DNA from: Actinomycetota bacterium
GTDB taxonomy: Bacteria > Actinomycetota > UBA4738 > HRBIN12
Length of the DNA: 64,000 nt
Assembly (NCBI GenBank): GCA_036505195.1
Contig: DASXTX010000052.1
Coordinates: forward strand, 1,272-65,271
Reading direction: 5' to 3'
The notes under the pieces were generated by a model that saw nothing but the letters and a program-made list of their open reading frames with translations, made no database searches and had not been told where the DNA came from. How positions within the stretch are numbered: position 1 is the first letter of the stretch; every line of letters begins with the position of its first letter. Made by a program: the position numbers and the translations under genes. Of this stretch, positions 23,406 through 56,431 are shown piece after piece.

Positions 23406-23443
23406 GCGAGAGTGGCGGAACGGCAGACGCGCCGGACTTAGGA
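23406..23443 (+). pseudogene. 5' half of tRNA-Leu(TAG), acceptor 5' strand through the anticodon loop; left junction (attL-like) of the island
   Basis: gcgagagtggcggaacggcagacgcgccggacttagga is identical to 46527-46564 of the intact tRNA-Leu, and about 14 nt of upstream flank also match. Identity stops after CTTAGGA. Confidence 0.85.
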
Positions 23444-23510
23444 GCACCAACTCCACGTCCTGCGCAAAAGCGCACAGCCTCAAACCGCAGCCTACTGCTA
23501 CGGGCGGCTA
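23432..23510 (+). repeat. cassette-boundary repeat R1 (fused to the tRNA-Leu 5' half)
   Basis: CCGGACTTAGGAGCACCAACTCCACGTCCTGCGCAAAAGCGCACAGCC...CTACTGCTACGGGCGG. Confidence 0.85.
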
Positions 23511-23596
23511 GCGAGAACCTCGAGGGTCGCACTCAGTCAGTTCCTTCCCAACCTGATTCGAAGTCCGCTCTCTCGTTGCCATGTCATCAACTCTCG

Positions 23597-24082
23597 CTAC
23601 GCGGCCTCCTGAGGCAGTTTGGCGTTGAGCTCGCTGGCGATGTTGTCCGCCCTCACCCGCAGGTTCAGCCACTTCGCCAGATTCGATTTCTGCAGTGCGT
23701 TCAACCGGATGACTCGCCCGCCCTTGGTGACGACGACTATGCCGAAGTAGCCGTAGCTCGAATCGAAGCGCTCGATTTCTGACCACGCCAGACGATGGGT
23801 GGAGAAGTAGTTCACGACCGTGAGTCCCATGTCGTCCGCAATCACTCGGAGCTGAGACTGTCGCCACATGAAGGCCGCGAAACCTCCACTCATCAAGGCC
23901 AGGATTAACCATTCGGCAGCCTCGTCCAGCGAGCCTCGGAAGAGGGACACCGCCGACGTGGCGAGAGCGACGAGCGAGAGGCCGCCCGAAGCGACCGCCA
24001 CCACGAGCGAGCAGATAATGAAGACCAACCGTGGTCGGTAAACCACACCGAACTCCCTATCTCTGCTACGAAGCTTCGGCAC
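23597..24082 (-). CDS. cassette 1: membrane protein with bacterial PH-like domain
   Basis: 161-aa ORF with two N-terminal TM segments, then ..GLTVVNYFSTHRLAWSEIERFDSS..GIVVVTKGGRVIRLNAL.., resembling bacterial PH-domain proteins. Confidence 0.5.
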   Translation of the reverse strand: MPKLRSRDREFGVVYRPRLVFIICSLVVAVASGGLSLVALATSAVSLFRGSLDEAAEWLILALMSGGFAAFMWRQSQLRVIADDMGLTVVNYFSTHRLAWSEIERFDSSYGYFGIVVVTKGGRVIRLNALQKSNLAKWLNLRVRADNIASELNAKLPQEAA

Positions 24083-24169
24083 GGTCTCTCATCGGCTGTA
24101 GCTCGTGACAAGGGGCCTCGCGCAGGCAGGAAGACGACTAGGGGCGCTTTTGCATCGCGCACACACACA

Positions 24170-24250
24170 CCGGACTTAGGAGCGCCAACTCCACGTCCTG
24201 CGCAAGGCGCACATCCTCGACCGAAAGCGTACTGCGACGGGCAGCGTCAG
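24170..24250 (+). repeat. cassette-boundary repeat R2
   Basis: CCGGACTTAGGAGCGCCAACTCCACGTCCTGCGCAAGGCGCACATCC...GCGTACTGCGACGGGCAGCGTCAG. Confidence 0.85.
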
Positions 24251-24345
24251 CACATCTCGGATACCCAGGTCGTATCCACAGGAGCACTGGCGTCCTGCGA
24301 GGCCCTCGTCGACCATCTGCTTCGTGACACCAACAACCCCCACAT

Positions 24346-24945
24346 ATGCCCTTGAAGACACTTGGCTGTCCATCGCCCGATAAGCTGGGCGGGTGGCCGT
24401 CGACACATGTGCGTCGCGTCCTGTGCACGCCCGGGGGTGAGATTTCGGTGGCTCAAGCAATCTTCGTTCCCTTCACCTGGCCGAAGCGCTTGGCTCAGAA
24501 CAACACAAGCGGTTCCAAACTCGTTGAACCAGCAGTGCTCAAGGCGCTACGTATCTCGAACAGCTTGCTCAAGACGGAGCGGCCCGATGGCACACCAGAG
24601 AGAAAGGCCGACGGGAGCGTCGGCCAAGCCGAAATTGAAATCTACGCGCCGCGTCCGGACGCGAAGAATCCGAACCTTCTCAATCGTGCGGACGAGAAGA
24701 ACGGACGCATCCGAGTCAAGTCGGGCATCGACCCGAACTACCGGTGCATCATCATCGCCCTGTTGCTTTCCCAGAGTCAGATTGACAGGTTGAAAGTAGA
24801 GACGAGTCCGGATGAGGTCGTCTTTGGGCTTTGGAACGGAAGCTCTCGCTATTCGCTCAGCCTTCACGACGGGACCCCCCTGACTCGTCCGGTCTGGGAC
24901 CAGTTCCTGAAGAATCAGCCGCCAGCTCGTAAGAGCCGCTTCTGA
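24346..24945 (+). CDS. cassette 2: hypothetical protein
   Basis: 199-aa ORF that fills the cassette. No motif recognised. Start uncertain. Confidence 0.45.
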   Translation: MPLKTLGCPSPDKLGGWPSTHVRRVLCTPGGEISVAQAIFVPFTWPKRLAQNNTSGSKLVEPAVLKALRISNSLLKTERPDGTPERKADGSVGQAEIEIYAPRPDAKNPNLLNRADEKNGRIRVKSGIDPNYRCIIIALLLSQSQIDRLKVETSPDEVVFGLWNGSSRYSLSLHDGTPLTRPVWDQFLKNQPPARKSRF

Positions 24946-24988
24946 CACACACCAGACAGCCGCTGGTTCGATTCCACGAAGTTCGGAC

Positions 24989-25064
24989 ACCGGACTTAGG
25001 AGCACCAACTCCACGTCCTGCGCGAAGCGCACAGCCTTTCGCTTGAAGCGTACTGCGACGGGCA
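24989..25064 (+). repeat. cassette-boundary repeat R3
   Basis: CCGGACTTAGGAGCACCAACTCCACGTCCTGCGCGAAGCGCACAGCC...GCGTACTGCGACGGGCAG. Confidence 0.85.
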
Positions 25065-25128
25065 GGTTCGGAGAAGGGCCCAAGGTCAGGCTCTGTCGCT
25101 AGGTGGCCTCCGACGACTGAAGTCGAGC

Positions 25129-25935
25129 TCAGGAAATGCTGCGACCATCCTCGGCGTCACTGGGCGCGTCGACGGTCCCGGGTCTGGATGGCATCACTCT
25201 TGGCGCTTGCCCGTAGTGTTCCACCGCCTGTTCGACGGCTGAGGCGAACTCGTGGAGGTCAGCCACGAGTAGCCTCGAGAAGAGGGTCTCGCTCGAGGGT
25301 GTGTTTGAGTACGCGTCGGCCGACTTGATGTGCGCGATGTCATCCCGAAGGTCCTTCAGCTCAGCCACCCGCTGCCATACCTCAGCTCTCGCCGTCTCAA
25401 GGCTCTCCTTGCCAAGCGCCGCGGGCAAGGCGACGGTCAGCCGTAACTTGATGCCACGCTGCTCGAGGTCATCACGGGAAAGCGTCTGGCCCTTCCACGA
25501 GACGGTGAGCCCCTCCGGCATCGACTCGTTCGCGTAACTGTCCAGCGCCGCATGCAGCAAGAGCACGGCGGCCATGGCCTCCTCGAAGAAGTCGAGAACG
25601 GCCTGGTCGCTCGTAAAGCGACGGTCCATGAAGGGCTTGATGAACCCTCTTTCCGTTGTCTGGCTTGGCAGCTGGAGCTGAAGGCGCATGGCACGCTTCA
25701 CGCGGGGGCTCGCGGCCGACATGAGCAGACGGGCCGGACTGGGCGCGACGAAACCCACCCGACCGAGTTCGGGATGGGTGACCACCTGGACAACCTGTAT
25801 CTCTTCACCGGCTTCGTGAGCTGGCTGACCCTGCGGCCCAGGCGGTACGTCCTTGGTGATGGTTGTGGACCAACGCCTTCGTCGGTCACCGACCCGCTTG
25901 CCGTTTTTCTTGGTTCGTCGTCTGCGACTTGACAA
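25129..25935 (-). CDS. cassette 3: hypothetical protein with a possible HEPN-type R-x4-H motif
   Basis: 268-aa ORF with a basic N-terminus. The helical C-terminal half contains LKDLRDDIAHIK (R-D-x3-H). Confidence 0.5.
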   Translation of the reverse strand: MSSRRRRTKKNGKRVGDRRRRWSTTITKDVPPGPQGQPAHEAGEEIQVVQVVTHPELGRVGFVAPSPARLLMSAASPRVKRAMRLQLQLPSQTTERGFIKPFMDRRFTSDQAVLDFFEEAMAAVLLLHAALDSYANESMPEGLTVSWKGQTLSRDDLEQRGIKLRLTVALPAALGKESLETARAEVWQRVAELKDLRDDIAHIKSADAYSNTPSSETLFSRLLVADLHEFASAVEQAVEHYGQAPRVMPSRPGTVDAPSDAEDGRSIS

Positions 25936-26041
25936 GCCGTCCCTCTCACGTCTGGGGTCTGCCGGTCGGGCCTGGGACCCCGTGACCTAGTCAGCGCCGT
26001 CCCGGACTGTTCGCAGCGCCGCGGCGATGTCATCGGGCTCA

Positions 26042-27662: not shown

Positions 27663-27700
27663 GGCCAGAGGTTCATCGAGGAGAAGCCAGGGGACGAGCA

Positions 27701-27775
27701 CCAGACTTAGGAGCACCAACTCCACGTCCTGCGCAAGGCGCACAGCCTTGGGCGTCGATGCTACGCGACGGGCGG
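27701..27775 (+). repeat. cassette-boundary repeat R6
   Basis: CCAGACTTAGGAGCACCAACTCCACGTCCTGCGCAAGGCGCACAGCC...GCTACGCGACGGGCGG. Confidence 0.85.
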
Positions 27776-27816
27776 ACCCACCACAGGCGGATGAGCGCCG
27801 AACGCCGCAGTGCGTG

Positions 27817-28092
27817 TCAGCCCCGTCTGTCCTGGCGGCGCTCCTTGCGGCGTCGGTGACGACGCATGACACCTACCCCGAACCAGACCAACGCCCCCAG
27901 GAACGCGGAGGCCAGCGTCAGCAACCAGAGCGGCCAGGTGAAGCCCCAGAACAGGAAGTCGAGGCGGACGCTCTCGGTGTTCTGGAACATGAAGATGAGC
28001 AGCAGGCCCACTCCGGTAAGCGACGCGATGGCGCCAGCCCCGAGCCCACGTGCTTGGGCCTGGGAGCCGCTGGTATTGGGACCCTCGCGCAT
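27817..28092 (-). CDS. cassette 6: small LapA-domain (DUF1049-like) membrane protein
   Basis: Start set at MREGPN (28092). ..SVRLDFLFWGFTWPLWLLTLASAFLGALVWFGVGVMRRHRRRKERR is typical of LapA-domain proteins. Confidence 0.55.
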   Translation of the reverse strand: MREGPNTSGSQAQARGLGAGAIASLTGVGLLLIFMFQNTESVRLDFLFWGFTWPLWLLTLASAFLGALVWFGVGVMRRHRRRKERRQDRRG

Positions 28093-28190
28093 GACCACTC
28101 CCCCTTTTGGTGAGTCACGGCCGAGCCCGACTTTACGCCAGCGATTCCCGGTGGAGGAGAGGTAGCATTGCTCTGGAACCGTCCCGTGCA

Positions 28191-28265
28191 CCGGGCTTAG
28201 GAGCACTGCTCAGTGTCCGGCAAGGCGCACTTCCTAGTTCAGACCCTACTGGGAGTGGCAGCGAC
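28191..28265 (+). repeat. cassette-boundary repeat R7 (degenerate)
   Basis: CCGGGCTTAGGAGCACTGCTCAGTGTCCGGCAAGGCGCACTTCC...CTACTGGGAGTGGCAGCGAC. Confidence 0.65.
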
Positions 28266-28314
28266 AGCCGCAGCTAGAGTGGACTCGGTGGGTCGGCTGG
28301 GGTAAGTCTATGAC

Positions 28315-29076
28315 GTGCGCGTTGTCACGTGGAACATGGACCACTGGAAGCATCCCAGGAAGTCGAGTGAGGCGTGGGCTTTTCTCCTCGACGAGCTCCG
28401 TCCCGACATAGCCCTGCTGCAAGAGGCGGTGATTCCAGGTGACGTCCGGCATGACCCCCTGTGGACGCACGCTCGTGAGCGAGGGACCTCCTTGAAGGAG
28501 CTTGCGTGGGGCTCAGCCATACTCTCCCGCGTCGGAACGCCGGCTACGCACCTTGTCATCAGCCCCGAGGACATCGCAAAGAGGGGGGCTGTGCAGGTTG
28601 CGAGTTGCAACATCGCCGGAATCGGCGAGACAACCATAGTGAACATCCATTCACGTCTTGATGACGACAAGCGGGCCGTGCAGAAAGTCATACCGAATCT
28701 CCGCAAGACTTTCGAGATGGTTCTCCCAGCCCTGGGCGAGCGATTCATCGTCGGTGGAGACCTCAACACAGCGAGGTCGCTGGACAGGGTATACGGGCAG
28801 AAGTACGGGCACGGGGACTTCTGGCGCGAAATGGACGCGGGCATCCTGAGAGAGTCGCTCCCTGGCGAGAACGGGGAGCGCCAGTCCTATTGGGGAATCG
28901 CCAAGGGGCCGACCGCGGGCATCCTTCAGGATGACCACCTCTTCTTCGATGCCGAGACATTCAAGCTCGTCAGCGAATCCCGCGTTTGGGACACTCCGCA
29001 AATCCGAGAGCTAAGTGACCATGGTCCAATCGTGGTGGACCTCGACCTCAGCGCCGGTCGAGGCTCAGACACGTGA
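28315..29076 (+). CDS. cassette 7, gene 1: endonuclease/exonuclease/phosphatase (EEP, DNase-I-like) family protein
   Basis: 253-aa ORF: MRVVTWNMDHW.., ..DIALLQE.., ..GGDLN.., ..LSDHGPIVVDL (EEP catalytic motifs). Confidence 0.75.
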   Translation: MRVVTWNMDHWKHPRKSSEAWAFLLDELRPDIALLQEAVIPGDVRHDPLWTHARERGTSLKELAWGSAILSRVGTPATHLVISPEDIAKRGAVQVASCNIAGIGETTIVNIHSRLDDDKRAVQKVIPNLRKTFEMVLPALGERFIVGGDLNTARSLDRVYGQKYGHGDFWREMDAGILRESLPGENGERQSYWGIAKGPTAGILQDDHLFFDAETFKLVSESRVWDTPQIRELSDHGPIVVDLDLSAGRGSDT

Positions 29077-29579
29077 CGAGCGACCAAGCCAGCCCGCTGG
29101 TTGGCGACCTGAGAGACACATGGAACTCCCACTACGCGGAGAATCTCTTCGAACACGTATTCATCGCGGAGGTTCTCCAGGAGTGCGCCTTCGTTCGCAA
29201 GCAGAGGGTGGAGGTCCTTCGAGCAGAGGTTGATGAGTCCGGCTATGACCTCGTTCTCTCGCTGGGCAAGGTCACCCGGCACGTTCAACTGAAGGCCAGC
29301 GCCAGGGGTGGCTCAACCAAGTCCGTCATGGTGAACGAGGCTCTTCAAGAGCACATCGGCGGGTGCGTCGTCTGGATGCTTTGGACCGAGGACGAGGACC
29401 ACCGATGCGACTTCACGTACCGCTTCTTCGACACAGCGGTAAAGCCACTCCCCTCAAAGGTCGCGAAGAACCGGAAGACCAAGGAGCCGAAACCCAACAT
29501 GCGGGTCGTCACTCCGTCGCAGTTCGAGAGAGCAAGCACTGTGGGAGAGCTGGCCTTGCTGCTGTTCGGACCACCATGA
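29073..29579 (+). CDS. cassette 7, gene 2: hypothetical protein, possible PD-(D/E)xK-like fold
   Basis: 168-aa ORF overlapping gene 1 by ATGA. ..EVDESGYDLVLSLGKVTRHVQLK.. looks like a D...(E/Q)-x-K nuclease core. Weak. Confidence 0.45.
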   Translation: MTSDQASPLVGDLRDTWNSHYAENLFEHVFIAEVLQECAFVRKQRVEVLRAEVDESGYDLVLSLGKVTRHVQLKASARGGSTKSVMVNEALQEHIGGCVVWMLWTEDEDHRCDFTYRFFDTAVKPLPSKVAKNRKTKEPKPNMRVVTPSQFERASTVGELALLLFGPP

Positions 29580-29722
29580 CCTCGCCATCTTCCCCCGCAT
29601 AGCGCCACCGGGGGACGCGTTCAGAACCGCCGCAGGGGGGCGATACCTCTTCCCTTCCGGTTGTCTTCCCACTCTCGGCACCGACTAGGCTTCATGTGGT
29701 ACGTGATAGCTGGGAGAGCGCG

Positions 29723-30628
29723 ATGCCAGAGATAACTGCAGAACGGACCGGCGAGTTGATGCGAGGAGTGTTTCGCGTGCTGCTCAATGAGCCCGAAGGG
29801 GTGCAAGCACGTGAGGTTCTCCGGCGAGTTGAGCAAGTCATTCCGCCAACTGAGTTCGAAGCCGCCGATTACCCAAATCGCCCCGGAGTAAGGCGGTACG
29901 AGAAGATAGTCCGCTTCGCCTCTATCCGTCCCGTAAAGGCTGGCTGGCTCGTGAAGGATGGAGGGAAATGGACGCTGACGCCCGAGGGGCGTTCGGCCTA
30001 CGAACGCTATTCCGACCCCGGGGCGTTCACGCGTGAAGCAAGGCGGCTGTATCGGGCATGGAGGCTCGAACAGTCTGACGCTTCCGGCGACGTCGCTGAT
30101 ACAGACGAAGAAGCAGCAGACGAAGTAGCCCCCGACCCGAGAACCACGCTAGAGGAAGCCGAAGAGAACGCTTGGAGCGCCATCGCTGATTATCTGGCCC
30201 GTATGCCACCCTTCGAATTCCAAGACCTAGTGGCGGCGTTGCTGCGTGCGATGGGCTACCACATCGCTTGGACGGCGCCGCCTGGGCCAGACCGAGGCAT
30301 AGACATTGTTGCGTTCCAGGACCCCCTTGGCGCGACCAGTCCTCGAATAAAGGTGCAGGTCAAACGACGAGCAGGACGCATCCCCGCCGACGAACTTCGG
30401 TCGTTTATGGCAGTCCTCGGACAAGATGAGGTGGGTATCTACGTCTCAATCGGCGGGTTCACGAGCGACGCGGAGGTCGAGGCGAGAGGCCAAGAGCGCA
30501 GAAGCGTGACGCTGATTGACATGAGGAGACTCGTGAGTCTGTGGATTGAACATTATGACCGACTGATTGAGGAGGACCGCTCGCTTCTCCCATTGAAACC
30601 CGTTCACTTCCTTACCGCTGCGCTGTGA
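29723..30628 (+). CDS. mrr: cassette 7, gene 3: Mrr-family (type IV) restriction endonuclease
   Basis: Start at MPEITAERT (GGGAGAG upstream). N-terminal Mrr_N-like winged helix (..KIVRFASIRPVKAGWLVKDGGKWTLTPEG). C-terminal FEFQDLVAALLRAMGY..GPDRGIDIVAF..IKVQVKR catalytic core. Confidence 0.8.
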   Translation: MPEITAERTGELMRGVFRVLLNEPEGVQAREVLRRVEQVIPPTEFEAADYPNRPGVRRYEKIVRFASIRPVKAGWLVKDGGKWTLTPEGRSAYERYSDPGAFTREARRLYRAWRLEQSDASGDVADTDEEAADEVAPDPRTTLEEAEENAWSAIADYLARMPPFEFQDLVAALLRAMGYHIAWTAPPGPDRGIDIVAFQDPLGATSPRIKVQVKRRAGRIPADELRSFMAVLGQDEVGIYVSIGGFTSDAEVEARGQERRSVTLIDMRRLVSLWIEHYDRLIEEDRSLLPLKPVHFLTAAL

Positions 30629-30683
30629 TTAAGTCGGAACTCGTGCGATTCGGTCGTAGCCAGGAAGCCCTTCCTTCGAGGCA

Positions 30684-30755
30684 CCGGACTTGGGAGCACC
30701 CGCTCCACGTCCAGCGAGGCGCAGCCTTCGGCGCTGAGCGTACTGCGACGGGCAG
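30684..30755 (+). repeat. cassette-boundary repeat R8
   Basis: CCGGACTTGGGAGCACCCGCTCCACGTCCAGCGAGGCGCAGCC...GCGTACTGCGACGGGCAG. Confidence 0.8.
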
Positions 30756-31025
30756 ATTGCCGGGCATCGGCCGAAGGTCGGTGCTGCGCAAGAGCCGAGC
30801 GCACGGCTCGAGTCACCTCCTCCCCTCTGGTCACGTCACTCCGGAGCTTCGTAGGCACGGGCGGTGCCTCAACGGACCACTTCACGATGGGCCACATCGC
30901 AGACCCGGCCTCAGTCCTTCTCGCCTACGTGCCGACGGTTCTATAGTGGCCAACCCAAAGTTCATGACAGGGCGCCCCGAAATGAAGTCACAAATGCCGG
31001 CGAGGCTGACCAGAGGAAGTGGCTG

Positions 31026-31745
31026 ATGAGGCGGACCGACTTTCGCCTTGCCTCCATTTACATCTCGTGCTCTTTGGTCGAGGGAGCGGTCGACGGTCAG
31101 CAGGCCTATAGAGCCCTTCTGACTCAGTTTGGCTCCGAATACGACGGTGAGTCCTTCTCCCTGCCCGTCCCTTCGGAGGTTCCTGTTCCACCCGAGGTGG
31201 CAACCGCCTCCCTTTCGAGCAAGGACAGAACTCAAACCGCGGAGTTCGGGCGTGGCCGGGTAGCGTTTCGCTGGTCAGCGTCCGACGAGACCAGTCCGAC
31301 GCTCCCCACCGTCGCCACGAGCGTTAGAGAACGGCTTGCCGCCTTCATCGCTCCTGATGCCATAGTGGTCAGTCGCATAGGAGTTGTGGTGACCTTCTTC
31401 GCCGAGGTCCAAAGACCCGGCGAAGCAATCGCTGAAGCGTTCGTCGAGTCGAAGTTCCGTTCTCGTGCACTGGATGACATCGGAGCTCTCGAAATTCACG
31501 TCTTTAGGATGCGTTCACTCCTTGACCGCAACGTCGCAACAAACCACTGGACCCGCGTGCGTTCAGTGAAGTCATCAGGCAACGAATATGACGCCATCAC
31601 GTTCGAGCAGGACTTGAACACGCGAACAGAAGACGCGAGCGAAAGTCGGTTCACTATTGCTGATATCAGCGGTTTCGTTTCGGAACTTGACGAAGTAGTG
31701 GAACGGACGTTCTTGGACTATTGGGGAGACGCGACTGATGAGTGA
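31026..31745 (+). CDS. cassette 8, gene A: hypothetical protein
   Basis: Start set at MRRTDF (ATG 31026, GAGGAAG upstream). 239 aa. No family recognised. Confidence 0.5.
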   Translation: MRRTDFRLASIYISCSLVEGAVDGQQAYRALLTQFGSEYDGESFSLPVPSEVPVPPEVATASLSSKDRTQTAEFGRGRVAFRWSASDETSPTLPTVATSVRERLAAFIAPDAIVVSRIGVVVTFFAEVQRPGEAIAEAFVESKFRSRALDDIGALEIHVFRMRSLLDRNVATNHWTRVRSVKSSGNEYDAITFEQDLNTRTEDASESRFTIADISGFVSELDEVVERTFLDYWGDATDE

Positions 31746-32532: not shown

Positions 32533-32900
32533 GTGACCCCGAAGTCGTTTTGGTTACTGAAGCCGACGAGCTCTACCGGAGGCTGCATTGGACCGCCGTT
32601 CGAGATGGCGAAGTCCTGTCTGTTGCGTATAAGAGGTCGGGAAAGCCAGCCTCCACGTTCTCAGTCGACATCGCGAGGCTCACCACACCTGAAACCTCCG
32701 TGGGGCTTGGACCTGCGGGCTCGGGAGTGGGGATTTTGGTGGCGGGAGTGCCGATGGGTTTGGGTTTCAGCGTGACTCACTCCCCAGAGATGGGGAACGA
32801 TGCTCACGCAAATGTCACCGGCGACAATACGAAGCAGAAGTGCAGACTACTTGCCGAAGCGACCAACATCCACATCGAACCCGACGCCCCCGAGCAGTAG
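32529..32900 (+). CDS. cassette 8, gene C: hypothetical protein
   Basis: GTG 32529 overlaps the gene B stop as GTGA. The track ORF starts at 32508. About 123 aa. No family recognised. Confidence 0.45.
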   Translation: MSDPEVVLVTEADELYRRLHWTAVRDGEVLSVAYKRSGKPASTFSVDIARLTTPETSVGLGPAGSGVGILVAGVPMGLGFSVTHSPEMGNDAHANVTGDNTKQKCRLLAEATNIHIEPDAPEQ

Positions 32901-33020
32901 CCCGATTATCGCAGGACGTCTGCCTTCAGCTTCGGGACTGCTTGCAACCACCCCCTAGGCATGGCCCTACAGATGGCCCGCCCTCCCCTCCCCAAGCAGA
33001 CAGGAAGCGCGCACCCAAAC

Positions 33021-46460: not shown

Positions 46461-46526
46461 GTCCGGTGCGTCACTTGTTTCCAGGCCCCTCCCTCAGCCT
46501 TTACGCTGGTCAGCGCTTCGACCATC

Positions 46527-50100: not shown

Positions 50101-53100
50101 CTACCTCGATCACCGACGCCCGCGGCAACACGACGACGATGACCTACGACGCCGACGGGAACATGACCTCGCTCACGAACCCGCTCAACAAGACCTGGAC
50201 CTACACCTACGACGTAGCGGGCTACCTGCTCACTGAAACCGACCCACTTGACAAGACCACTACGTACACGTACGACTCCGCCGGGAACCGTCTGACCAAG
50301 ACCGATCCCCTGAACCACACGTGGACCTACACGTACGACGCGGCGAACCGGCTGAAGACCGAGACGGATCCCCTCGGCAACACGACAACGTACTTCTACG
50401 ACCTCCTCGGCCGGATCGTGTCAGTCCGAGACCCCTTGAATCGAGAGGCCACGTTCCTGTACGACCTCGCCGGGCACCTGCTCCGGGCCACCGATCCGCT
50501 CGGCAACCAGACGAATTGGGCCTACGACGACCGCGGCCTCGTCAGCACCAAGACCGACCCAGCGGACAAGGTCTGGAGCTACACGTACGACGAGAACCGC
50601 AACATGACCTCGGTCACCGACCCGCTCAACAAGACGACGACGTACGGCTTCGACGACGCGAACCGGTTGACGTCGATCAGGGACCCGCTCGGGAGCAATA
50701 CGACCTATTCATACGACGCAGCCGGCAGGCTCGCATCGACGACCGACCCCCTGAACCGTGTCACGTCATACACCTATGACGCAGCTGGACATCTCAGCCA
50801 GACCACTCTGCCCAACATCGCGACACTCGGATACGCCTACGACGCGAACGGCAACTTAACCTCGGTCACGGATGAGCTCGGCAACGCTAATACCAGCGCC
50901 TACGACGCCGCGAACCGGCTGACGTCGACCACCGATCCCTTGAACAAGACCACGTCCTACGGCTACGACGCCGCGGACCGACGTACTTCGGTGACCGACC
51001 CGCTCAACCGCACGACCGTCTTCGCCTACGATGCGGCCGGACGGCTGGTCTCAACGACGGATCCCCTCAACAAGACCACAACGTACGGGTACGACATCGC
51101 CGACCGGCGGATCTCCGTCACCGATCCGACGAACCGAACGACGACAGTCGGCTACGACGCGGCCGGGCAGCTCCTCGCGGTAACCGACCCGGGCGGCAGG
51201 ACGACGACGAGCGCGTATGATGCCGCAGGCCGCCTGGCCTCCGTCACGGAGCCATCGGGAGCGGTGACGAGCTACGGCTACAACAGCCGCGGTCTGCTGA
51301 CCTCGGTCACCGACCCGCTGTTCAAGGTCACGACCTACGGCTACGACGACGCCGGCCGGATGAGCTCGGAGACCGACCCGCTCAACAACGCGACGACCTA
51401 TAGGTACGACGGCGCGGGGCGGCTGGCCACGATCACAGATGCCCTCGGAGGGGTGGTCACCCTCGGCTACGACGCCGCCTCGCAGCTCACCTCCGTCACG
51501 GACACCCGCAGCAAGACGTGGAGCTACGGGTACAACGCCCTCGGAATCCGCAACTCCGTCACGGACCCGCTGAACCGACAGACCACCTGGGGCTACAACG
51601 CGGCCGGCCAGCTCACGAGCCGAACCGACGCCCGGGGGATCCAGACCAGCTACGGGTACGACGCCGCCCGCCGGCAGACCTCGGTCGCCTACCCGGGTGG
51701 CTCGGTCGGCTACACCTACAACGACGCGGGCGAGCGCACCCAGATGGCCGACCCCACCGGCCAAACCACGTCCACCTACGACGCGGCAGGCCGTATCACG
51801 GCCGTGAGTTCGCCGCGGGGCCAGATCACTTACACGTACGACTCGGCCGGACGACGGGCGTCGATGACGCTTCCTGGCAACCGTACGCTGACCTACGACT
51901 ACAACGCTCGGGGCCTGCTTTCCTCGCTCACGGACTGGCAGGGCAGTGTCACGAGCTTCGACTACGACTCCGACGGCAACCGCACCAAGATCACCCGTCC
52001 GAACGGCGTCGAGTCGGACTACGCCTACGACTCGGCCGGCCACGTGACCTCGATCACACACACGAAGGGCGCGACCACGCTGCTGTCGTTCGCATACACG
52101 TACGACGACGCCGGCCGAAGGACCAGCGTCACTACGCCCGAGGGCACCGAGAGCTACTCCTATGACTCGCTCGGGCGCCTCACGCAGGTGAGCTACCCCG
52201 GCGGCCCGACCGTGTCCTACACCTACGACGGCGCCGGCAACCGGAAGACCGAAACGCGAGGCGGGAATCCGACGAACTACGATTACGACGCCGCTGGCCA
52301 GCTCCTGACTGTCGGGAACAAGATCTACACGTACGACGCGAACGGGAACCTGACCCAGGCCGGCAGTGACTCGTTCACGTGGGACTATGACAACCGTCTA
52401 ACGCAGGCCACAATCGGGACCCACACCGCGTCCTACGCCTATGACGGCGACGGCGTCCGCTCCCGGGCGACAGTCGACGGGAACCAGTCGAACTTCCTCG
52501 TCGACACGCTGGACGGCCTGCCGACGCTCGTCGACGATGGGTCGAAGGCCTACCTACACGCCGATGGGGCGCTCTCCGAGATCAGTGCCGGCGGCGCAAC
52601 GCAGGTGCTCGCTGACGGGCTCGGGTCCGTCCGCGGGCTGGCCGACACGAATGGCAGCCTCGTCGCCTCACAATCCTACGAGGCGTTCGGGACGCCACGG
52701 ACGACGAGCGGTACGTCGAGCCTGTTCGGGTTCACGGGCGAGCCGACCGATGCGACGGGGCTCGTCTATCTCCGAGCTCGTTCGTTCGATCCATCTATGG
52801 GGCGTTTGCTCTCGGCCGACACCGTGCAACCGAACGCCAACGGAACGCAGGGCTACAACCTGTATGCGTACGTAGCGAACAACCCAGCGACCTGGGTAGA
52901 TCCGTCTGGCCATTCCTTCGACGTCGATCAGGTTGATGACTTGCTCTATTACTACGCAACCCACCCCGAGGCTCTTGCCGCGTCGATTGCGGCAATCGAA
53001 GCGTACGCGAATTCCGGTGCCATTCAGGCGGGCGGAGCTGGTGCGGCGATCATCATTACAGTCATCGCGTTCATCCTGACCGCCGCCGTCCTTATGTGCT

Positions 53101-53669
53101 TCACGCTCGGCCCGTGCGACATAAGAAGCACGCAAACGGCCATCGACAGGCAAGGCTCAGCGTGGCCAGGTGATCGTGTTTGGACGGCGGCCGACCTTCT
53201 CGAAGCGGCCAAGGAGTGGCCCGCGCCAGCAACTGTCGCGGATCCGACGCCCGATCCTGTACCCGGACCTGAACCCAGGCGCCGCCCCAGAGCTGGTGAG
53301 AGTGTCTATAGAGTGTGGGGTGGGCAACGAGGGCCGTTTGGGGCATCGTGGACACCCGATGACCCACAACAGTTCGGACCCGAAAAGTTCCGAGATCTTG
53401 CTGGCCTCCCGGATCGCGTCAATCACGGCAACTTCATCACTGTCGCCATCCTCAAGGACCCCCGAGTTGTGCCACCGTCGGGTTCGCATCCGTCGCTTCC
53501 GATGCCCGAGGGCCCCGATGCATGGTGCGATTACCAGGGGATTGAGGTGTGGGAGTATGAAATCCCGAACGCAGCAGCGGCCATCGCGAGCGGCAAAATC
53601 GTGATCGTGAATGTCCTTGGGCCCCTAAACCCCCCATATGGCGGGCGACCACCGAATGGCTGCCCGTGA
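47175..53669 (+). CDS. RHS/YD-repeat polymorphic toxin (2164 aa)
   Basis: N-terminal TM or signal anchor, then four ~120-aa tandem modules, then dozens of YD repeats (..YxYDxxGxL..). RHS core end ..GEPTDATGLVYLRARSFDPSMGRLLSADT..YAYVANNPATWVDPSGH, followed by a ~260-aa variable C-terminus. Confidence 0.9.
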   Translation: MNESPNEQGFRTQTVVDGHDPAPRLRRRPWLFRTLRFAPLALAVALAFLANVLQAVPPSERSRVLLDGSTTRLVSHNDPTPSGADPLYPLNHTVDGKTESVGTPPANSGFEQAGGLVGTPPVNHDLQTAPVDSVTVPNGDFETGTFANWTLTGSPTISSDQTRGYWASLGSGHVITSSAIAVPSSAQALTYQVGYLTTNNYSWVKVYVVSGADFATSTLVKDDYCFRCGYWSTNTLDLGAYRGQTIKLKFSQYSGTIGINDVKVQQVFPGFDVSGTYFRALDGTDAYAWIQSGGWLTTAQPFAVHPDAQSGTVEMKGNIASSQYQIQIATGPNFSTYTTVASGIAPASWQGVRFYLGTTYAGQQIKLRVRSAYNWIAVDDLGIQQQDLPGWSTSGDTRRIDDGSGNHYATTNGTITSSAFQIPANAENLSFRIRSEGDVTQTTVNLLRGTDFSTVTQIHYDAATPTWKTVISGVAPFAGETVKLRFVKGIGGRLAVDDAGLMESVLPGWTPNSADALATGENANGTFATPAGDDSAMFLRSSWISTAIVDRTGFAEMRQYAISYEFGSGGGLLQLFWVDAGGSLNVFQDAANGATAYRTRYFWLADFMAQRGHFVVKLTGSGSKFYSIADNVARQQLSEPFSRKVGLGIDTTTGSVAFAENGITIPGPIPLSFTRYYNAHADRRGPLGYRWSHTYETHLEILADGDAGAVYGSGREEFFNLNTFNGTFAPADSRVHSTLVKNADGTYALTTKANLIYRFTSTGVLSAIEDLNGNTVSLAYDPEGRLWTVTGAGGTSLTFSYDAQSRLSTVTDPANATYTFGYDANNDLVSVTDPLNGVRSYVYNHHRLTRVTDENGDLVVDNTYDDYHRVISQTDAANKTISLAYDTPGMGATTVTFPDQGIGKFYFDRFGRTTDTIDPTDRRTRFLYDSNGNLDKIVDSGNAAWDMAFDASADLTSATDPLGNPISLAYNAKHLPTSITDARGNTTTMTYDADGNMTSLTNPLNKTWTYTYDVAGYLLTETDPLDKTTTYTYDSAGNRLTKTDPLNHTWTYTYDAANRLKTETDPLGNTTTYFYDLLGRIVSVRDPLNREATFLYDLAGHLLRATDPLGNQTNWAYDDRGLVSTKTDPADKVWSYTYDENRNMTSVTDPLNKTTTYGFDDANRLTSIRDPLGSNTTYSYDAAGRLASTTDPLNRVTSYTYDAAGHLSQTTLPNIATLGYAYDANGNLTSVTDELGNANTSAYDAANRLTSTTDPLNKTTSYGYDAADRRTSVTDPLNRTTVFAYDAAGRLVSTTDPLNKTTTYGYDIADRRISVTDPTNRTTTVGYDAAGQLLAVTDPGGRTTTSAYDAAGRLASVTEPSGAVTSYGYNSRGLLTSVTDPLFKVTTYGYDDAGRMSSETDPLNNATTYRYDGAGRLATITDALGGVVTLGYDAASQLTSVTDTRSKTWSYGYNALGIRNSVTDPLNRQTTWGYNAAGQLTSRTDARGIQTSYGYDAARRQTSVAYPGGSVGYTYNDAGERTQMADPTGQTTSTYDAAGRITAVSSPRGQITYTYDSAGRRASMTLPGNRTLTYDYNARGLLSSLTDWQGSVTSFDYDSDGNRTKITRPNGVESDYAYDSAGHVTSITHTKGATTLLSFAYTYDDAGRRTSVTTPEGTESYSYDSLGRLTQVSYPGGPTVSYTYDGAGNRKTETRGGNPTNYDYDAAGQLLTVGNKIYTYDANGNLTQAGSDSFTWDYDNRLTQATIGTHTASYAYDGDGVRSRATVDGNQSNFLVDTLDGLPTLVDDGSKAYLHADGALSEISAGGATQVLADGLGSVRGLADTNGSLVASQSYEAFGTPRTTSGTSSLFGFTGEPTDATGLVYLRARSFDPSMGRLLSADTVQPNANGTQGYNLYAYVANNPATWVDPSGHSFDVDQVDDLLYYYATHPEALAASIAAIEAYANSGAIQAGGAGAAIIITVIAFILTAAVLMCFTLGPCDIRSTQTAIDRQGSAWPGDRVWTAADLLEAAKEWPAPATVADPTPDPVPGPEPRRRPRAGESVYRVWGGQRGPFGASWTPDDPQQFGPEKFRDLAGLPDRVNHGNFITVAILKDPRVVPPSGSHPSLPMPEGPDAWCDYQGIEVWEYEIPNAAAAIASGKIVIVNVLGPLNPPYGGRPPNGCP

Positions 53670-53686
53670 GCGGATCGACGGCCTAA

Positions 53687-54577
53687 ATGACCAATTTGAC
53701 GCTACTCGGCAGAAGGGTCGTTTCACGACATCACCATGAGCTCCTGCTGTTCGATGCAGACTCTACGGATCTTCTGAGCTTCCACATCGCGGGGGTATTG
53801 TGGACCGACGTCGTGCGTGTGGCGGAGCGCTCCGGAATCATGGAAGCACAAGACGCAGTGACGAGTCACCCGGTTCTCCTGGTGATCCGCCTCGCCCCAC
53901 GATTCGAAATCACGGGGCGGCTCGAGTTCGCCCCCACACCGACTTGGGATGGATGGCCGGAATCGTGGCGAGCATTGCCAGCGGCATACGCGACGAATGT
54001 CAACGGGCGCGACAGGATGTTGTTCTTGCTCGGACACGACGTTAAGGCCACGCGCCGCATTCAACTACCACTCAATCCCGGGGAGGCCGAGGCCGAAGGC
54101 GTTCCGTTCGCTGTCCAGCTCCCAGACGCTGAGTCGATTGTCGTGTGTACAGGCGGAGGCCGGTATGTAACACGAATCTCGGCGACTACTGGGGAGGTGC
54201 AGCAGGTTCTCGAAACGCCCAGCTCACTGCTTTCACGACCGTGCCCGATCGTTCTGGACGACACGCTCTGGGTCGCGGCGTGGGATGCCGTGTTGCGGAT
54301 CGATACGGAGTCCGGGGAAATCCAGCGTCTACCTGTGGCCCGCCTCCGGGAGGATCAGGTGATCGACTTCGCACTTGATCCCTCGCAACGTCGGGGCGCG
54401 GTTGCGCTAGCCTCCTCGGGCGCAATCGTCCTCTTTGACATTGATGCCATGGAGATATTGAGAGTCGCTGACACGGCCGAATCTCTGCAGAGGATATGGA
54501 TCGTCGATGACTGGCGGTATGTAGCGCAGGTATGGGGTGAGCCCCGATTCGTGACCGGCTCGTTCCGCGACACTTGA
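53687..54577 (+). CDS. hypothetical protein; candidate RHS-toxin immunity protein (by position only)
   Basis: 296-aa ORF beginning 18 nt after the RHS stop, same strand. No family recognised. Confidence 0.45.
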   Translation: MTNLTLLGRRVVSRHHHELLLFDADSTDLLSFHIAGVLWTDVVRVAERSGIMEAQDAVTSHPVLLVIRLAPRFEITGRLEFAPTPTWDGWPESWRALPAAYATNVNGRDRMLFLLGHDVKATRRIQLPLNPGEAEAEGVPFAVQLPDAESIVVCTGGGRYVTRISATTGEVQQVLETPSSLLSRPCPIVLDDTLWVAAWDAVLRIDTESGEIQRLPVARLREDQVIDFALDPSQRRGAVALASSGAIVLFDIDAMEILRVADTAESLQRIWIVDDWRYVAQVWGEPRFVTGSFRDT

Positions 54578-54869
54578 CCCACCGGGTTGCGACGTTTCTC
54601 GCTCGTCATGATCCCGGATCGGCGTGTCGATGCCCCCGGACGGATGTCCACGGGTTGCCGCGTTTCTAGGCCGCTAACTGTTCTCCCGTCACGTGGAGGA
54701 CGGGTTAGGAGATAGGGCCCCTCGAAACGGCACTCTGCGCCGAAGTGCAACCAACCTGTGAGCCTGGGCCCGCGGAACGGCACCCCTGCGCGCAGGCGGG
54801 AAGCAACTGCTGGGCGAGCCCAGGACTATCCTCGCGGAACCGTCGAGATCAATCACTGGTCTTAGAGCC

Positions 54870-56084
54870 ATGAGGCGATCCGCTGCGCTCCTGCTTGTCG
54901 TCTTGGTTGCCCTACTCGCCTGCGAGGCCCGCAGTCCTCAGGACCAGGAGTCGGCCACCCCGTCGGCAGGTGCCTCAACCGAGCCGTGGTCGGAGTACCC
55001 GGTGGGGTGGACGAGGTTCCCAACCCCTCCCGAGCAGCGGAGCGGCGACACGTGGGTCTGGGCGGGCTCCGAGCTACTCGTTGCTGGCGGCTGCGATCCC
55101 AATCAGGTCGAGGATCGCTGTCGTGAGACGAAGACGGTTTATGCGTTCGATCCAGCGATCGGCTCCTGGGGAAGCGTTCAGCCCTCCCTGTTGTCCATGG
55201 CAGACGCCGAGGGCGTGTGGACGGGCAGGGAGGCGATCTTTCTTGAGACGGTCGGCGGAGCGGGACCGATCGTCGGTCAGGCATATGAACCCAGCTCAGA
55301 CAGCTGGCGGTCCATCGAGCAGGCTCCGATCGGCCGTGCCTACGGCACCGTCCTCGTCTGGACGGGGGACGAGCTCATCGTCTGGGGCGGAGGCGATCGC
55401 GGCGACGACCGGACGAGTCAGGGTGCTGCGTACGACCCCACATCGGACAGCTGGCGGCGGATCGCGGATCCCCCGATCGGGTTCAACTTGGCGAGCGGTA
55501 TCTGGACCGGCAGGGAGATGATCGTCTTCGGGTCACTGCTGAGTCACGCCAACAGGGCGTCGTCATCGACCTCACTCGGAGAGGCGTATGACCCGACATC
55601 GGACACCTGGCGCGAACTCCCGGCCTCCACGCTCTCGCCCCAGGCGACGTCCGCGGCCTTCGTCGATGGTCGGATGGTCGCATGGGACTATGAGGCCCAC
55701 TCGCAGGCGTACAACCCGACCACGGATCACTGGACAGATCCTCAGCGGCTGCCTTTCGTCGGCAGCGAGTGCTACCCGGACAGCGCCGTCGTTGCGGGTC
55801 TGCTGTTCGCCTGGTTCTGCGGGAAGGCAGCCCTCTTCGACGCGGCCGCATCGACGTGGCAGCAGGTCGCAGGCGGTCCGCTCGACGAGACGATCTACTC
55901 GAACGCGTACAAGACTGACATCCATCTCTGGCGATTCGCCGACCTCGTCGCTGCCGGACCAGTGGTCGTGATGCCGATGGAAGGGATCACACTCAACAAC
56001 CGTGGTATTGCGTGCTACGGATGCCCAGGCTCGCCCACGTCGTTCTGGGTCTACCGACCGCCTGAGGAGATCGTCTCGACCTAA
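54870..56084 (+). CDS. Kelch-like beta-propeller lipoprotein
   Basis: Lipobox LVALLAC. Repeated blades ..AYDP(T/S)SD(S/T)WR.. and ..VWTG.E.IV.GG.. Confidence 0.6.
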   Translation: MRRSAALLLVVLVALLACEARSPQDQESATPSAGASTEPWSEYPVGWTRFPTPPEQRSGDTWVWAGSELLVAGGCDPNQVEDRCRETKTVYAFDPAIGSWGSVQPSLLSMADAEGVWTGREAIFLETVGGAGPIVGQAYEPSSDSWRSIEQAPIGRAYGTVLVWTGDELIVWGGGDRGDDRTSQGAAYDPTSDSWRRIADPPIGFNLASGIWTGREMIVFGSLLSHANRASSSTSLGEAYDPTSDTWRELPASTLSPQATSAAFVDGRMVAWDYEAHSQAYNPTTDHWTDPQRLPFVGSECYPDSAVVAGLLFAWFCGKAALFDAAASTWQQVAGGPLDETIYSNAYKTDIHLWRFADLVAAGPVVVMPMEGITLNNRGIACYGCPGSPTSFWVYRPPEEIVST

Positions 56085-56300
56085 CTCGTCACAGACTCAC
56101 GTACACCGCCCTGGTATAGGCCGAGAGCACTGGGCGCGTGAGGCCTCCGTCAAGGACAAGCCGCGCGGTCGCCAAGCGTGCTCGGCGACGTTCTTCGTGC
56201 CCGTGCCCCCCCCACCCCTCGTGATTCGCGGACAACGTTTCACGTACACATGGGTGCACGCGACGGCGCCGTTCTCGCTCACAGCTTGCTCACGACGGAA

Positions 56301-56346
56301 CGACACCGGATGGCACAGGTCGACACCGGACGACACAGGACGACAC
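56301..56346 (+). promoter_or_regulatory. four direct CGACAC repeats 30-80 bp left of the attR-like core; candidate recombinase arm sites
   Basis: CGACAC at 56301, 56321, 56331 and 56341. The first two are CGACACCGGA and so share CACCGGA with the repeat cores. Confidence 0.4.
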
Positions 56347-56379
56347 GTAGAGCCGGGATCTGTGCCTGGCTGCAGCAAC

Positions 56380-56431
56380 CTTAGGATCCGGTGCCCGAAA
56401 GGGCGTGGGAGTTCGACTCTCCCCTCTCGCA
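56380..56431 (+). pseudogene. 3' half of tRNA-Leu(TAG), anticodon loop to discriminator; right junction (attR-like) of the island
   Basis: cttaggatccggtgcccgaaagggcgtgggagttcgactctcccctctcgca is identical to 46558-46609. The match continues a few nt into the 3' flank (ccccc..tc), and the left flank is unrelated (gcagcaac). Confidence 0.85.

Follow-up and report, generated by a model that had tools for sequence, protein, structure and literature searches.

Two unrelated recombination systems probably meet at a split tRNA-Leu(TAG) gene of an Actinomycetota bacterium, one of them resembling an integron cassette array

Introduction

The described systems closest to the locus examined here include integrons, whose gene cassettes are served by the Xer-related tyrosine recombinase IntI, and genomic islands that integrate at transfer RNA genes (tDNAs) and displace a part of them. 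No complete integrons were present in any Actinobacteria genome analysed by Cury et al. (PMC4889954). Amongst the 3919 islands of the Islander survey 159 (4%) belong to the 5' type, and four tandems comprise at least three islands (PMC4383910); in the tycheposon arrays of Prochlorococcus integrase-bearing elements are separated by partial tRNAs (10.1101/2020.12.28.424599), and in actinobacteriophages a tRNA gene split by integration can be complemented by a separate tRNA gene that the element carries (tRNA-dependent lysogeny, PMC10865867). In this study we analyse a 64,000-nt stretch of an Actinomycetota genome (the window), in which tRNA-Leu(TAG) is split into halves that lie 33 kb apart with an intact copy between them, and propose that this 33-kb region is probably a composite of two unrelated site-specific recombination systems that both cross over in the anticodon loop, CTTAGGA.

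An earlier note on this DNA, made from its letters alone, had rightly remarked that islands bounded by a tRNA 5' half are rare, as the Islander counts above indicate, and had offered two readings: a single 33-kb element that split the tRNA gene and brought its own copy, or two tandem elements, the left one carrying a 5'-half and the right one a 3'-half identity segment. As set out below, the second reading was on the right lines and the first fails.

Methods

The window comprises positions 1,272 to 65,271 (forward strand) of contig DASXTX010000052.1 (GCA_036505195.1), and coordinates refer to it unless another locus is named. Comparison loci carry labels of the form L0xx or L1xx; L051 (contig JBFOMZ010000745.1) and L052 were taken from NCBI assemblies GCA_040961635.1 and GCA_040960995.1. 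The profile search (nhmmer) for the left-hand recombination site covered 61 sequences, 51 of which are metagenome contigs from approximately 30 datasets, retrieved by an exact 22-nt site. For clustering, a cassette unit was defined as running from one site start to the next site start. Transfer RNA genes were called with ARAGORN and Rfam, and domains with Pfam, NCBIfam and PADLOC; tblastx gave no usable synteny signal at this GC content.

Results and Discussion

The split tRNA gene

The window contains a single intact tRNA-Leu(TAG), placed at 46527-46611 by ARAGORN and at 46527-46609 by Rfam (56 bits), as the earlier note had it, and both of its ends recur as exact repeats elsewhere: a 48-nt repeat equates 23396-23443 with 46517-46564 (10 nt of upstream flank plus tRNA nt 1-38), and a 57-nt repeat equates 46558-46614 with 56380-56436 (anticodon loop to 3' end plus 3 nt). 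Both junctions described previously are thereby confirmed, the right-hand one running on to 56436. A chance origin is impossible for exact repeats of this length, and a 23-mer from the left junction has seven matches in the window against 0.00 expected. A shared flank upstream of the left junction does exist, but the "about 14 nt" first allowed for it is too short, as 23334-23443 aligns to 46451-46564 with 82% identity over 114 nt; because the upstream homology reaches approximately 23334, the intact copy has a diverged tRNA promoter region. The junctions read, exactly as noted earlier, CCGGA-CTTAGGA-GCACC (left) and GCAAC-CTTAGGA-TCCGG (right), with the core CTTAGGA corresponding to the 7-nt anticodon loop. 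Assembly duplication, which had been raised as a possible source of the tRNA fragments, is excluded, since the same architecture is present in over 20 contigs that are independent of one another and differ in sample and assembler. The parts of the gene are as follows.

23334..23405, + strand: native tRNA-Leu upstream (promoter) region, joined to the displaced 5' half; the equivalent stretch of L104 is 94% identical
23406..23443, + strand: displaced native 5' half, tRNA nt 1-38, the left terminus of the array, ending in the crossover core CTTAGGA (23437-23443); exact repeat of 46527-46564
46527..46611, + strand: intact tRNA-Leu(TAG), core CTTAGGA at 46558-46564 (ARAGORN; Rfam, 56 bits), presumably functional in the cell
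56380..56436, + strand: displaced 3' part, core to discriminator plus 3 nt, the right terminus; exact repeat of 46558-46614

The two sides of the region occur separately in related loci. The left system alone is found in L045, L075/L100 and L104; the right system alone in L113/L114 and L115, which have a native tRNA, no left array, and a right unit ending in the same arm and 3' half; and both systems in L077, L092 and L119. Because left-only, right-only and both-system loci exist, the reading as two tandem elements is supported. That picture had nevertheless missed the cassette array and integrase module on the left, the lack of an integrase in the right unit, and an arm-type att region of approximately 250 bp, which are described in turn.

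Recombination sites of the left-hand array

Confined in the window to the stretch between the displaced 5' half and the gene for a small tyrosine recombinase (L-Int, described below) is a repeat of approximately 85 nt, here termed the L-type site, of which repeat, 23-mer and nhmmer profile searches identified nine co-oriented copies (23.4-33.1 kb). Clear cores begin at 23437, 24175, 24995, 26047, 26654 and 27706; that at 28196 is weak and those at 30689 and 33019 are degenerate or decayed. The site reads C(A/G)CCGGA-CTTAGGA-GCACCAACTCC, followed by an arm of some 75 nt with two further conserved blocks, ..GTCC(T/G)GCG..GGCGCACAGCC and TACTGCGACGGGCA. The first copy is the one fused to the tRNA 5' half.

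23430..23508, + strand: L-type site 1, CGCCGGA-CTTAGGA-GCACCAACTCC... plus arm, fused to the tRNA 5' half (nhmmer 78)

The profile gave 149 matches in the 61 sequences, 114 of them non-redundant (84 internal and 30 fused to a tRNA 5' half). The 30 fused sites, all on other contigs, join the tRNA-Leu 5' half in register and exactly at the core, as at 23437 in the window. In the 84 non-redundant internal copies, from all loci, there is no conservation to the left of C(A/G)CCGGA, and internal units keep C(A/G)CCGGACTTAGGA as their sole tRNA sequence (12-13 nt). The left half-site is near-invariably CCGGA across the 114 sites; 56375-56379, at the right junction, reads GCAAC. Every site within a contig shares one orientation, that of the tRNA, and the arrays lie between a displaced tRNA 5' half and an intact tRNA. 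Spacing has a median of 800 nt (range 192-2546), and the densest array holds ten sites in 9.2 kb (L095). A complete element is present in L075/L100 (5' half, seven sites, L-Int, tRNA), and L045 comprises tRNA-Leu, a divergent integrase (87% identical), small open reading frames (ORFs), a site, a gene, and then another site, which is joined to a second 5' half with its upstream DNA. In the window, GC content drops from approximately 0.70 in the left flank to approximately 0.60 within the array.

The site can be described as an anticodon stem-loop with a 14-nt insert before the 3' stem strand, CCGGA-CTTAGGA-[14]-TCC(G/T)G. The possibility that the arm is a degenerate tRNA 3' half, or the 14 nt an intron-like insert, was rejected, relaxed ARAGORN calls being scattered and inconsistent on real and insert-deleted constructs. 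No attC-like folding was found: single-strand z values of approximately -0.4 to -1.5 on both strands were no better than those of shuffles, and the alignment fold was weak (-1.5 kcal for the top and -3.2 kcal for the bottom strand), with no compensatory double changes in 98 sites. Rfam gave no match, at gathering thresholds or at E <= 1, for the array or for an 82-nt repeat that adjoins L-Int. The arm 19-mer CCAACTCCACRTCCTGCGC had 44 singleton matches in a genome collection, in unrelated phyla and with no extended context, which we attribute to chance, and a scan with the same 19-mer did not find the L-type repeat in GTDB species representatives; viral contigs yielded no L-type site and only distant integrase relatives. 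At 44130-44180, just upstream of a 346-aa ORF, a core on the opposite strand (CTCCTAAG) is immediately succeeded by an arm-like fragment on the + strand (GCCTTCGGCTCTCAGCCTAGTGCGGCG); the pair may be a rearranged or inverted L-type site.

Cassette units and their re-assortment

The L-type sites divide the left-hand array into eight units and a longer integrase-proximal interval.

23509..24167, - strand: cassette u1 body (unit 23430-24167), with a 161-aa bacterial PH-domain protein at 23597-24082 (Pfam bPH_6)
24168..24987, + strand: cassette u2, site 24168-24246 (nhmmer 86) and a 199-aa ORF at 24346-24945 with no assigned function
24988..26039, - strand: cassette u3, site 24988-25066 and a 268-aa ORF at 25129-25935; matches L051
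26040..26646, no strand given: cassette u4, site 26040-26118 and a small ORF; unit shared with L065
26647..27698, + strand: cassette u5, site 26647-26725 (nhmmer 85) and a 145-aa ORF at 27225-27662
27699..28188, - strand: cassette u6, site 27699-27777 and a LapA-domain membrane protein gene (Pfam LapA_dom)
28189..30681, + strand: unit u7, weak site 28189-28267 (nhmmer 21), an EEP-family nuclease/phosphatase, a 168-aa ORF and a Mrr-type restriction endonuclease at 29696-30628 (Pfam)
30682..33011, + strand: unit u8, degenerate site 30682-30760 (core CTTGGGA; nhmmer 46) and ORFs of 293, 264 and 130 aa
33012..45695, no strand given: integrase-proximal backbone, with a decayed site at 33012-33090 (arm kept, core lost); cargo by Pfam, NCBIfam and PADLOC

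Four of the eight window units recur elsewhere. Units u1 and u4 are present in L070 (92-94% identity) and L065 (93-96%) respectively, in each case with unrelated flanks; u3 equals the third unit of L051 (14807-15858; 94.6% over 1055 bp), where the neighbours differ and the nearby integrase is 43% identical; and u6, shared with L068 and L106, is the sole cassette of the close relative L104 (96%). Across non-duplicate contigs 13 unit families are held in common, with different neighbours in 12 of the 13, and unit order also varies (12 and 10 adjacent in L080; 10, three other units, then 12 in L095). For 20 of 21 unit pairs both the 80 nt upstream and the DNA past the next site are at background identity (0.31-0.60), and a unit body shares one identity level with its left site (e.g. 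0.93/0.90), the next site being similar at family level only. As body and left site share their identity and homology ends at the sites, the mobile unit consists of core, arm and body, and the cassettes are discrete units that re-assort between arrays. Equal unit lengths (1052/1052 and 1948/1948) were considered and dismissed as coincidence, only the site being shared.

Each interval holds one or a few ORFs on either strand (29 + and 34 - amongst cassette ORFs). Cargo across loci includes a chromate transporter, S-adenosylmethionine (SAM) methyltransferases, GNATs, SnoaL-like, SDR, APH(6) kinase, ArsR and LapA-domain proteins, beta-propellers, and many proteins without assigned function; to these the window adds Mrr-type and type III restriction genes. 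PADLOC reported PDC-S02 and mREase_IV on u7, and a weak PDC-M32A match on the 264-aa ORF of u8. The backbone encodes a 606-aa protein without assigned function, 87% identical to the product of an L051 gene at the equivalent position, a serine-recombinase fragment (36853-37632), a type III restriction enzyme and methylase (38441-42971), and two further such proteins of 346 and 354 aa. The serine-recombinase gene (Resolvase and partial Recombinase domains) has 74% nucleotide identity to 12448-13110 of L046, a tRNA-Arg-associated element that also carries restriction-modification genes, which suggests that backbone is shared among elements of this integrase family. With the six-site array of L051/L052 (10001-18030) the window has one cassette and the 606-aa gene in common.

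The L-integrase and its module

Next to the intact tRNA, and divergent from it, lies the integrase gene, with a probable start approximately 13 codons into the ORF.

45696..46460, - strand: L-integrase (L-Int), 254-aa ORF, small Xer-like tyrosine recombinase (PF00589, E = 1.4e-25)
46441..46526, + strand: imported upstream region of the intact tRNA, two direct GTCCGGTGCG repeats followed by a promoter-like stretch (sequence comparison)

The best NCBIfam matches of L-Int are to XerA, XerC, XerD and IntI models, all below their cut-offs (bits against cut-off: XerA 95/220, XerC 91/335, XerD 84/330; for the integron integrase models, TIGR02249 71.5 against 265 and PRK15417 47.9 against 435). The catalytic R, HxxR, H and Y align to XerA (4a8e), and IntI4 (2a3v) aligns only to residues 190-244, i.e. 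the last 55. We rejected an assignment as a XerC, XerD or XerA dimer resolvase, given that the scores fall below the equivalog cut-offs and that the gene lies in a mobile module beside a tRNA. Homologues of L-Int are likewise found beside the tRNA in L045 and L075/L100. The family is tiny, with 26 representatives at E <= 1e-30 among 1.84 billion, almost all of them metagenomic, and has members in apparent phage genomes (L116, L117) and beside tRNA-Arg(ACG) (L046, L118). On the phage-like contig L117 a full tRNA-Gln (9678-9749) stands upstream of the L-family integrase. Many database relatives of L-Int are truncated or chimeric (e.g. P0017, 97% identical over 63% of the query, yet 239 aa long), suggesting frequent disruption of, or recombination in, the integrase gene in natural populations.

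The GTCCGGTGCG repeats (46441-46450 and 46461-46470) contain the half-site TCCGGTG, the reverse complement of the cassette half-site CACCGGA. The imported upstream region is kept in L045, L075, L104, L105, L107 and L119 and is not seen in native upstream regions. L-Int is the presumed enzyme acting on the L-type sites.

An 82-nt repeat (82% identical) lies at 45607-45688, just downstream of the L-Int stop codon, and again at 57098-57179, 0.7 kb past the right junction; it also adjoins the integrase or its remnant in L075 (89%) and L119 (98%), and a related CCGGAAGTCGCGCG motif stands upstream of the right-hand (R-type) integrase of L107. A regulatory role is possible for the repeat; alternatively, a remnant of a second integrase module may be present in the right flank. 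No hidden homology was found between the proteins flanking its two copies, nor between the GNATs of the window and L045.

The right-hand unit

Beyond the intact tRNA lies the R-type unit.

46612..56270, + strand: R-type unit cargo, comprising an RHS/YD-repeat toxin, a 296-aa beta-propeller-like protein and a Kelch-repeat protein (Pfam)
56271..56379, + strand: R-type att arm, with a TTGCTCAC motif, CGACAC direct repeats and a 31-nt segment; 87.5% identical to the L077 arm

The RHS/YD-repeat toxin (2164 aa) is encoded at 47175-53669 and the Kelch-repeat protein at 54870-56084. In the arm, the 31-nt segment takes the place of tRNA nt 1-31 and ends ...GTGCCTGGCTGCAGCAAC. CGACAC and TTGCTCAC repeats occur at 56286-56346 and 56495-56512, and the R-type junction is part of an arm-type att region of approximately 250 bp. 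In L077 an unrelated 1-kb cargo ends in this arm (87.5% identity over 184 nt), and the last 20 nt or so of the arm are kept in L113/L114/L115, with units of 1.9 kb (one NHL-repeat gene) and approximately 5 kb; the right-hand arm of L092 differs from that of the window. In L121 (10558-10704) a full tRNA-Leu is joined directly to the R-type arm repeats, in contrast to the 31-nt non-tRNA segment of the window.

By tblastn neither integrase family matched in the R-type unit (46612-56379), and the R-type family had no match anywhere in the window. L107, L119 and L121 nonetheless have an R-type integrase gene 3' of this tRNA; its product is approximately 390 aa long, 24% identical to L-Int, and has Arm-DNA-bind_4 and SAM-like domains. 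In L119 it is accompanied by Xis-like helix-turn-helix proteins and Prim-Pol/AAA_25 genes, with L-type sites and an L-Int remnant on the 5' side. Because an integrase is absent from the window unit and present in L107, L119 and L121, the unit is, judged by its gene content, a non-autonomous or decayed member of a family of lambda-type elements.

A conserved piece of approximately 60 nt with a repeated GGGTTGCGRCGTTTCTCGCTCG-like motif (54580-54700), found also near the right junctions of L077 and L084 (88%), may mark an internal boundary within right-hand units. Within the RHS/YD-repeat gene, 49400-52400 shows a strong 63-nt periodicity (families D1-D5, 14-20 copies each) and 29 Pfam RHS repeats, and the small genes downstream of it may include an immunity gene.

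Native and imported halves of the tRNA

The left flank of the window is common to its close relatives L093 and L104 (94% nucleotide identity to L104; 88-98% at the protein level across both), each of which has a displaced 5' half, one cassette (the LapA unit, 96%), the integrase upstream region reduced to a stub, and the intact tRNA. The lineage belongs to an uncultured group of soil Actinomycetota, and homologues of the DoxX flank gene bear no organism label other than 'Actinomycetota bacterium'. In L113/L114 and L115, whose flank is approximately 80% identical, DoxX-YkuD genes are followed by a native tRNA-Leu, and there is no array. The DNA flanking the displaced 5' half in the window is 94% identical to L104 and lies next to YkuD-DoxX genes as in L113/L115; 23334-23405 is approximately 70% identical to the region upstream of the intact copy and is without its GGTCCGGTGCG repeats. 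Two such repeats stand upstream of the intact tRNA, and alignment finds them also in L045 and L075, the flanks of which are otherwise unrelated. On the other side, the DNA past 56436 aligns with that following the intact tRNA in L104, L106, L107, L068 and L113, and the DNA after the intact tRNA of the window does not match that after the tRNA in relatives.

56437..56525, + strand: sequence that followed the tRNA before insertion of the right unit, with two TTGCTCAC repeats at 56495-56512 (alignment with relatives)

On the basis of these alignments on either side, the outer copies are the two native halves, and imported halves make up the working gene. The working tRNA would thus be a chimera, with nt 1-31 derived from the L-integrase module and nt 39-85 from the right-hand unit.

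Proposed mechanism

Under the composite reading the left system (23.4-46.6 kb) would be an integron-like cassette array served by L-Int. The L-Int module, carrying two TCCGGTG half-site repeats, a tRNA promoter, tRNA nt 1-38, and core plus arm, would recombine with the chromosomal tRNA, L-Int binding CACCGGA/TCCGGTG half-sites, such that the native promoter and 5' half (23334-23443) are displaced and a working gene is rebuilt. Between the displaced half and the module lie integrase-less units, each with one L-type site and usually one gene, which L-Int may excise as circles via two direct sites and reinsert at any L-type site; the tRNA would be spared by insertion at internal sites or at the hybrid site that the displaced 5' half carries, and repeated excision and reinsertion would shuffle, gain and lose cassettes. 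Whole modules also integrate serially (L064, L069, L099), and ordinary deletions erode arrays and integrases (L104, L105). The right system (46.6-56.4 kb) would represent a conventional integrative family, with an att that joins arm-type repeats to the tRNA 3' half and for which a lambda-type integrase with an arm-binding domain is expected; the unit in the window may be mobilised in trans, or may be a decayed element. The anatomy of the region, its recurrence, the mutual independence of the two systems, and the discrete nature and re-assortment of the cassettes are shown; the role of L-Int, the circular intermediate, the place of insertion and trans-mobilisation of the right unit are inferred.

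Several observations weigh against this scheme. Many arrays are without an intact integrase (L064, L068, L093/L104; stubs in L077, L099 and L105), and present-day mobility may therefore be low or need the enzyme in trans; extra 5' halves or integrase remnants in some arrays (L069, L099, L064) mean that whole-module accretion also contributes. In the window a 13-kb backbone separates the array from L-Int. The L-type core is asymmetric, its right half (GCACC...) being no inverted repeat of the left half-site, which is a difficulty for the second strand exchange, and the model does not explain the L051/L052 array, which adjoins the 43%-identical integrase in the opposite relative orientation and with no tRNA beside it. 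Finally, there is no synteny with relatives to the right of approximately 56.55 kb, and the variable region may extend further.

The strongest rival, which we nevertheless think unlikely, holds that the left array is a graveyard of serially integrated and decayed elements, built up by tandem accretion like tycheposon islands or in CIME formation, i.e. that each unit is the remainder of a full element with its own integrase and tRNA 5' half and never moved singly. Tandem arrays at tRNAs are documented (PMC4383910; 10.1101/2020.12.28.424599), and serial integration does take place at this locus: to the left of a 5' half, L099 and L064 retain a degenerate site together with the remnant of an integrase N-terminus, two sites of L069 bear 5' halves, integrase stubs are present at many loci, and deletions remodel arrays, L104 and L105 keeping only the first integrase codons. 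Random decay would, however, leave a variable edge, whereas the 84 internal sites start sharply at C(A/G)CCGGA with no remnant of a 5' half or promoter. The sites of approximately 85 nt are conserved while the DNA between them is unrelated, most units are a single ORF with a median of 800 nt, and identical units occur at other ranks and in other orders with homology ending exactly at sites. Arrays of 7-10 units, moreover, are common here, against the four tandems of at least three among 3919 Islander islands.

Very improbable, in our estimate, is the reading as one 33-kb element with attP GCAAC-CTTAGGA-GCACC that split the tRNA and complements it with its own tRNA-Leu, in the manner of tRNA-dependent lysogeny. 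The outer junctions do recombine on paper to a plausible attB and attP, the phenomenon is known in actinobacteriophages (PMC10865867), and related elements seem to carry whole tRNAs (the tRNA-Gln of L117; the R arm fused to tRNA-Leu in L121). Against this, the left and right parts are separate in relatives; the intact tRNA sits at their meeting point, with L-module repeats upstream and non-ancestral DNA downstream; GCAAC would be unusable as a left half-site by the standard of the 114 sites with CCGGA; and the arm left of 56380 has a different att architecture, common to R-only loci. We reject this reading on three counts: the two parts occur independently, the conserved half-site is not GCAAC, and the junction is where the gene has been rebuilt.

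That the repeat is instead a dispersed structural or regulatory one (a repetitive extragenic palindrome-like (REP-like) sequence, terminator or small RNA) resembling an anticodon arm by chance is hardly credible, since, for all its short hairpins (GGAG/CTCC, GCGC-GAA-GCGC, CAGCC-TTCG-GCTG) and its position between genes, it has no Rfam match even at E <= 1, folds no better than shuffles (z approximately -1) without compensatory covariation, is found only between a split tRNA half and a tRNA and always co-oriented with the latter, is fused in register to the tRNA 5' half at the core in 30 non-redundant copies, delimits homology blocks between arrays, and has flanking genes in either orientation (29 + and 34 -), a poor fit for a terminator or leader.

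Comparison with described systems

The left system would work like an integron. Both have co-oriented, mostly single-gene, integrase-less units with one site each that re-assort between arrays, varied accessory and defence cargo, one Xer-related tyrosine recombinase per platform, and many arrays without an intact integrase, as in attC clusters that have no integron-integrase (CALINs). In contrast to integrons, L-Int is without the IntI-specific insertion and has 254 aa rather than approximately 320, the L-type site is not an attC hairpin but a tRNA anticodon stem-loop core with a 75-nt arm on one side, a tRNA gene in need of rebuilding takes the place of attI as the anchor, and the cassette genes point either way and therefore show no Pc-type expression logic. 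An assignment as an integron was accordingly rejected: re-assorting one-site units were found, and IntI, attC and attI/Pc were not.

Taken as a whole, the left system has the layout of the 5'-type tDNA islands recognised by Islander and TIGER, seen also in L045 and L075/L100, with an intact tDNA and a co-oriented displaced fragment, an integrase inside and next to the intact tDNA, a crossover in the anticodon loop, and an element that restores the missing part of the gene; it differs in that the internal units are without integrases and keep 12-13 nt of tRNA, and that the imported part includes the promoter. Like tycheposons, it is a case of tyrosine-recombinase elements building a hypervariable island at a specific tRNA with successive integrations and remnants, but the units here are single genes with a conserved non-tRNA arm, and recombinase family and host phylum are different; classification as a tycheposon was rejected, the internal units having no integrase and only C(A/G)CCGGACTTAGGA of the tRNA. 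With tRNA-dependent lysogeny it has in common a short core in a tRNA, an actinobacterial host and a tyrosine integrase, and a cassette inserted in the intact tRNA would disrupt it; here, however, the module rebuilds the gene at the junction, where the phages carry a separate complementing tRNA (PMC10865867), and this class too was set aside, given that the intact gene, at the junction of the two systems, shares 114 nt of promoter and 5'-half homology with the displaced copy.

A further likeness is to integrase-less modules bounded by att- or dif-like sites in varied contexts with the recombinase elsewhere, i.e. cis-mobilizable elements (CIMEs) and pdif modules. CIMEs are few, large deletion derivatives of integrative and conjugative or integrative and mobilizable elements (ICEs or IMEs), and pdif modules have inverted XerC/D sites on plasmids and use the host XerCD, whereas the present arrays are long, direct and single-gene, at one chromosomal tRNA, and have a dedicated recombinase. 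The right-hand unit for its part resembles lambda-type (heterobivalent) elements at tRNA 3' halves, such as integrative elements of actinomycetes, in its identity block from the anticodon loop past the 3' end, repeated directly, and in its arm-type direct repeats; unlike them it has no integrase (tblastn), excisionase or replication genes, and holds the RHS locus and two beta-propeller genes only.

No description of arrays like the left-hand one was found in the literature, in a search whose coverage excluded most subscription journals, and the array is apparently undescribed. To the further proposition that the left system parallels the integron by independent convergence, as a dedicated platform of uncultured soil Actinomycetota for capturing and shuffling gene cassettes and a new class of mobile element, we give about even chances. 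If correct, it would pair a phage-related Xer-like recombinase with double-stranded sites derived from a tRNA anticodon stem-loop and with a cassette pool of its own, and the tRNA gene would be a docking site kept alive by the module-borne promoter and 5' half. Cassette platforms would then appear to have evolved more than once, with the same logic and unrelated parts, in an abundant uncultured lineage of soil actinobacteria, and such gene pools would escape surveys that rely on attC and IntI. The 240-aa enzyme and its site of approximately 85 bp with a 7-bp core form a testable pair and a possible genetic tool for high-GC bacteria. More generally, a tRNA gene can be a landing pad from both sides and end as a chimera, and island finders that rely on tDNA fragments would call one 33-kb island or two here and miss the array.

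Flanking regions

The earlier note had predicted that in island-free relatives the uninterrupted tRNA would be followed by methyltransferase/GNAT genes. This right-flank synteny was not confirmed: only some 120 nt past 56436 match close relatives, and beyond them no synteny was found at the nucleotide or protein level. Close relatives instead have a methyltransferase gene to the left of the tRNA, which it separates from the L,D-transpeptidase gene. It is a SAM-methyltransferase gene seen in that position in L105, L106 and L107 (left flank approximately 95% identical), inside a one-site array in L106, and the window has none, so that strains differ in the content of their arrays; L105 and L107 have no displaced 5' half. 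Past the split gene on the right, 56440-64000 encodes a GNAT, an MFS and an RTX-repeat protein, amongst others, at a GC content of 0.62-0.70.

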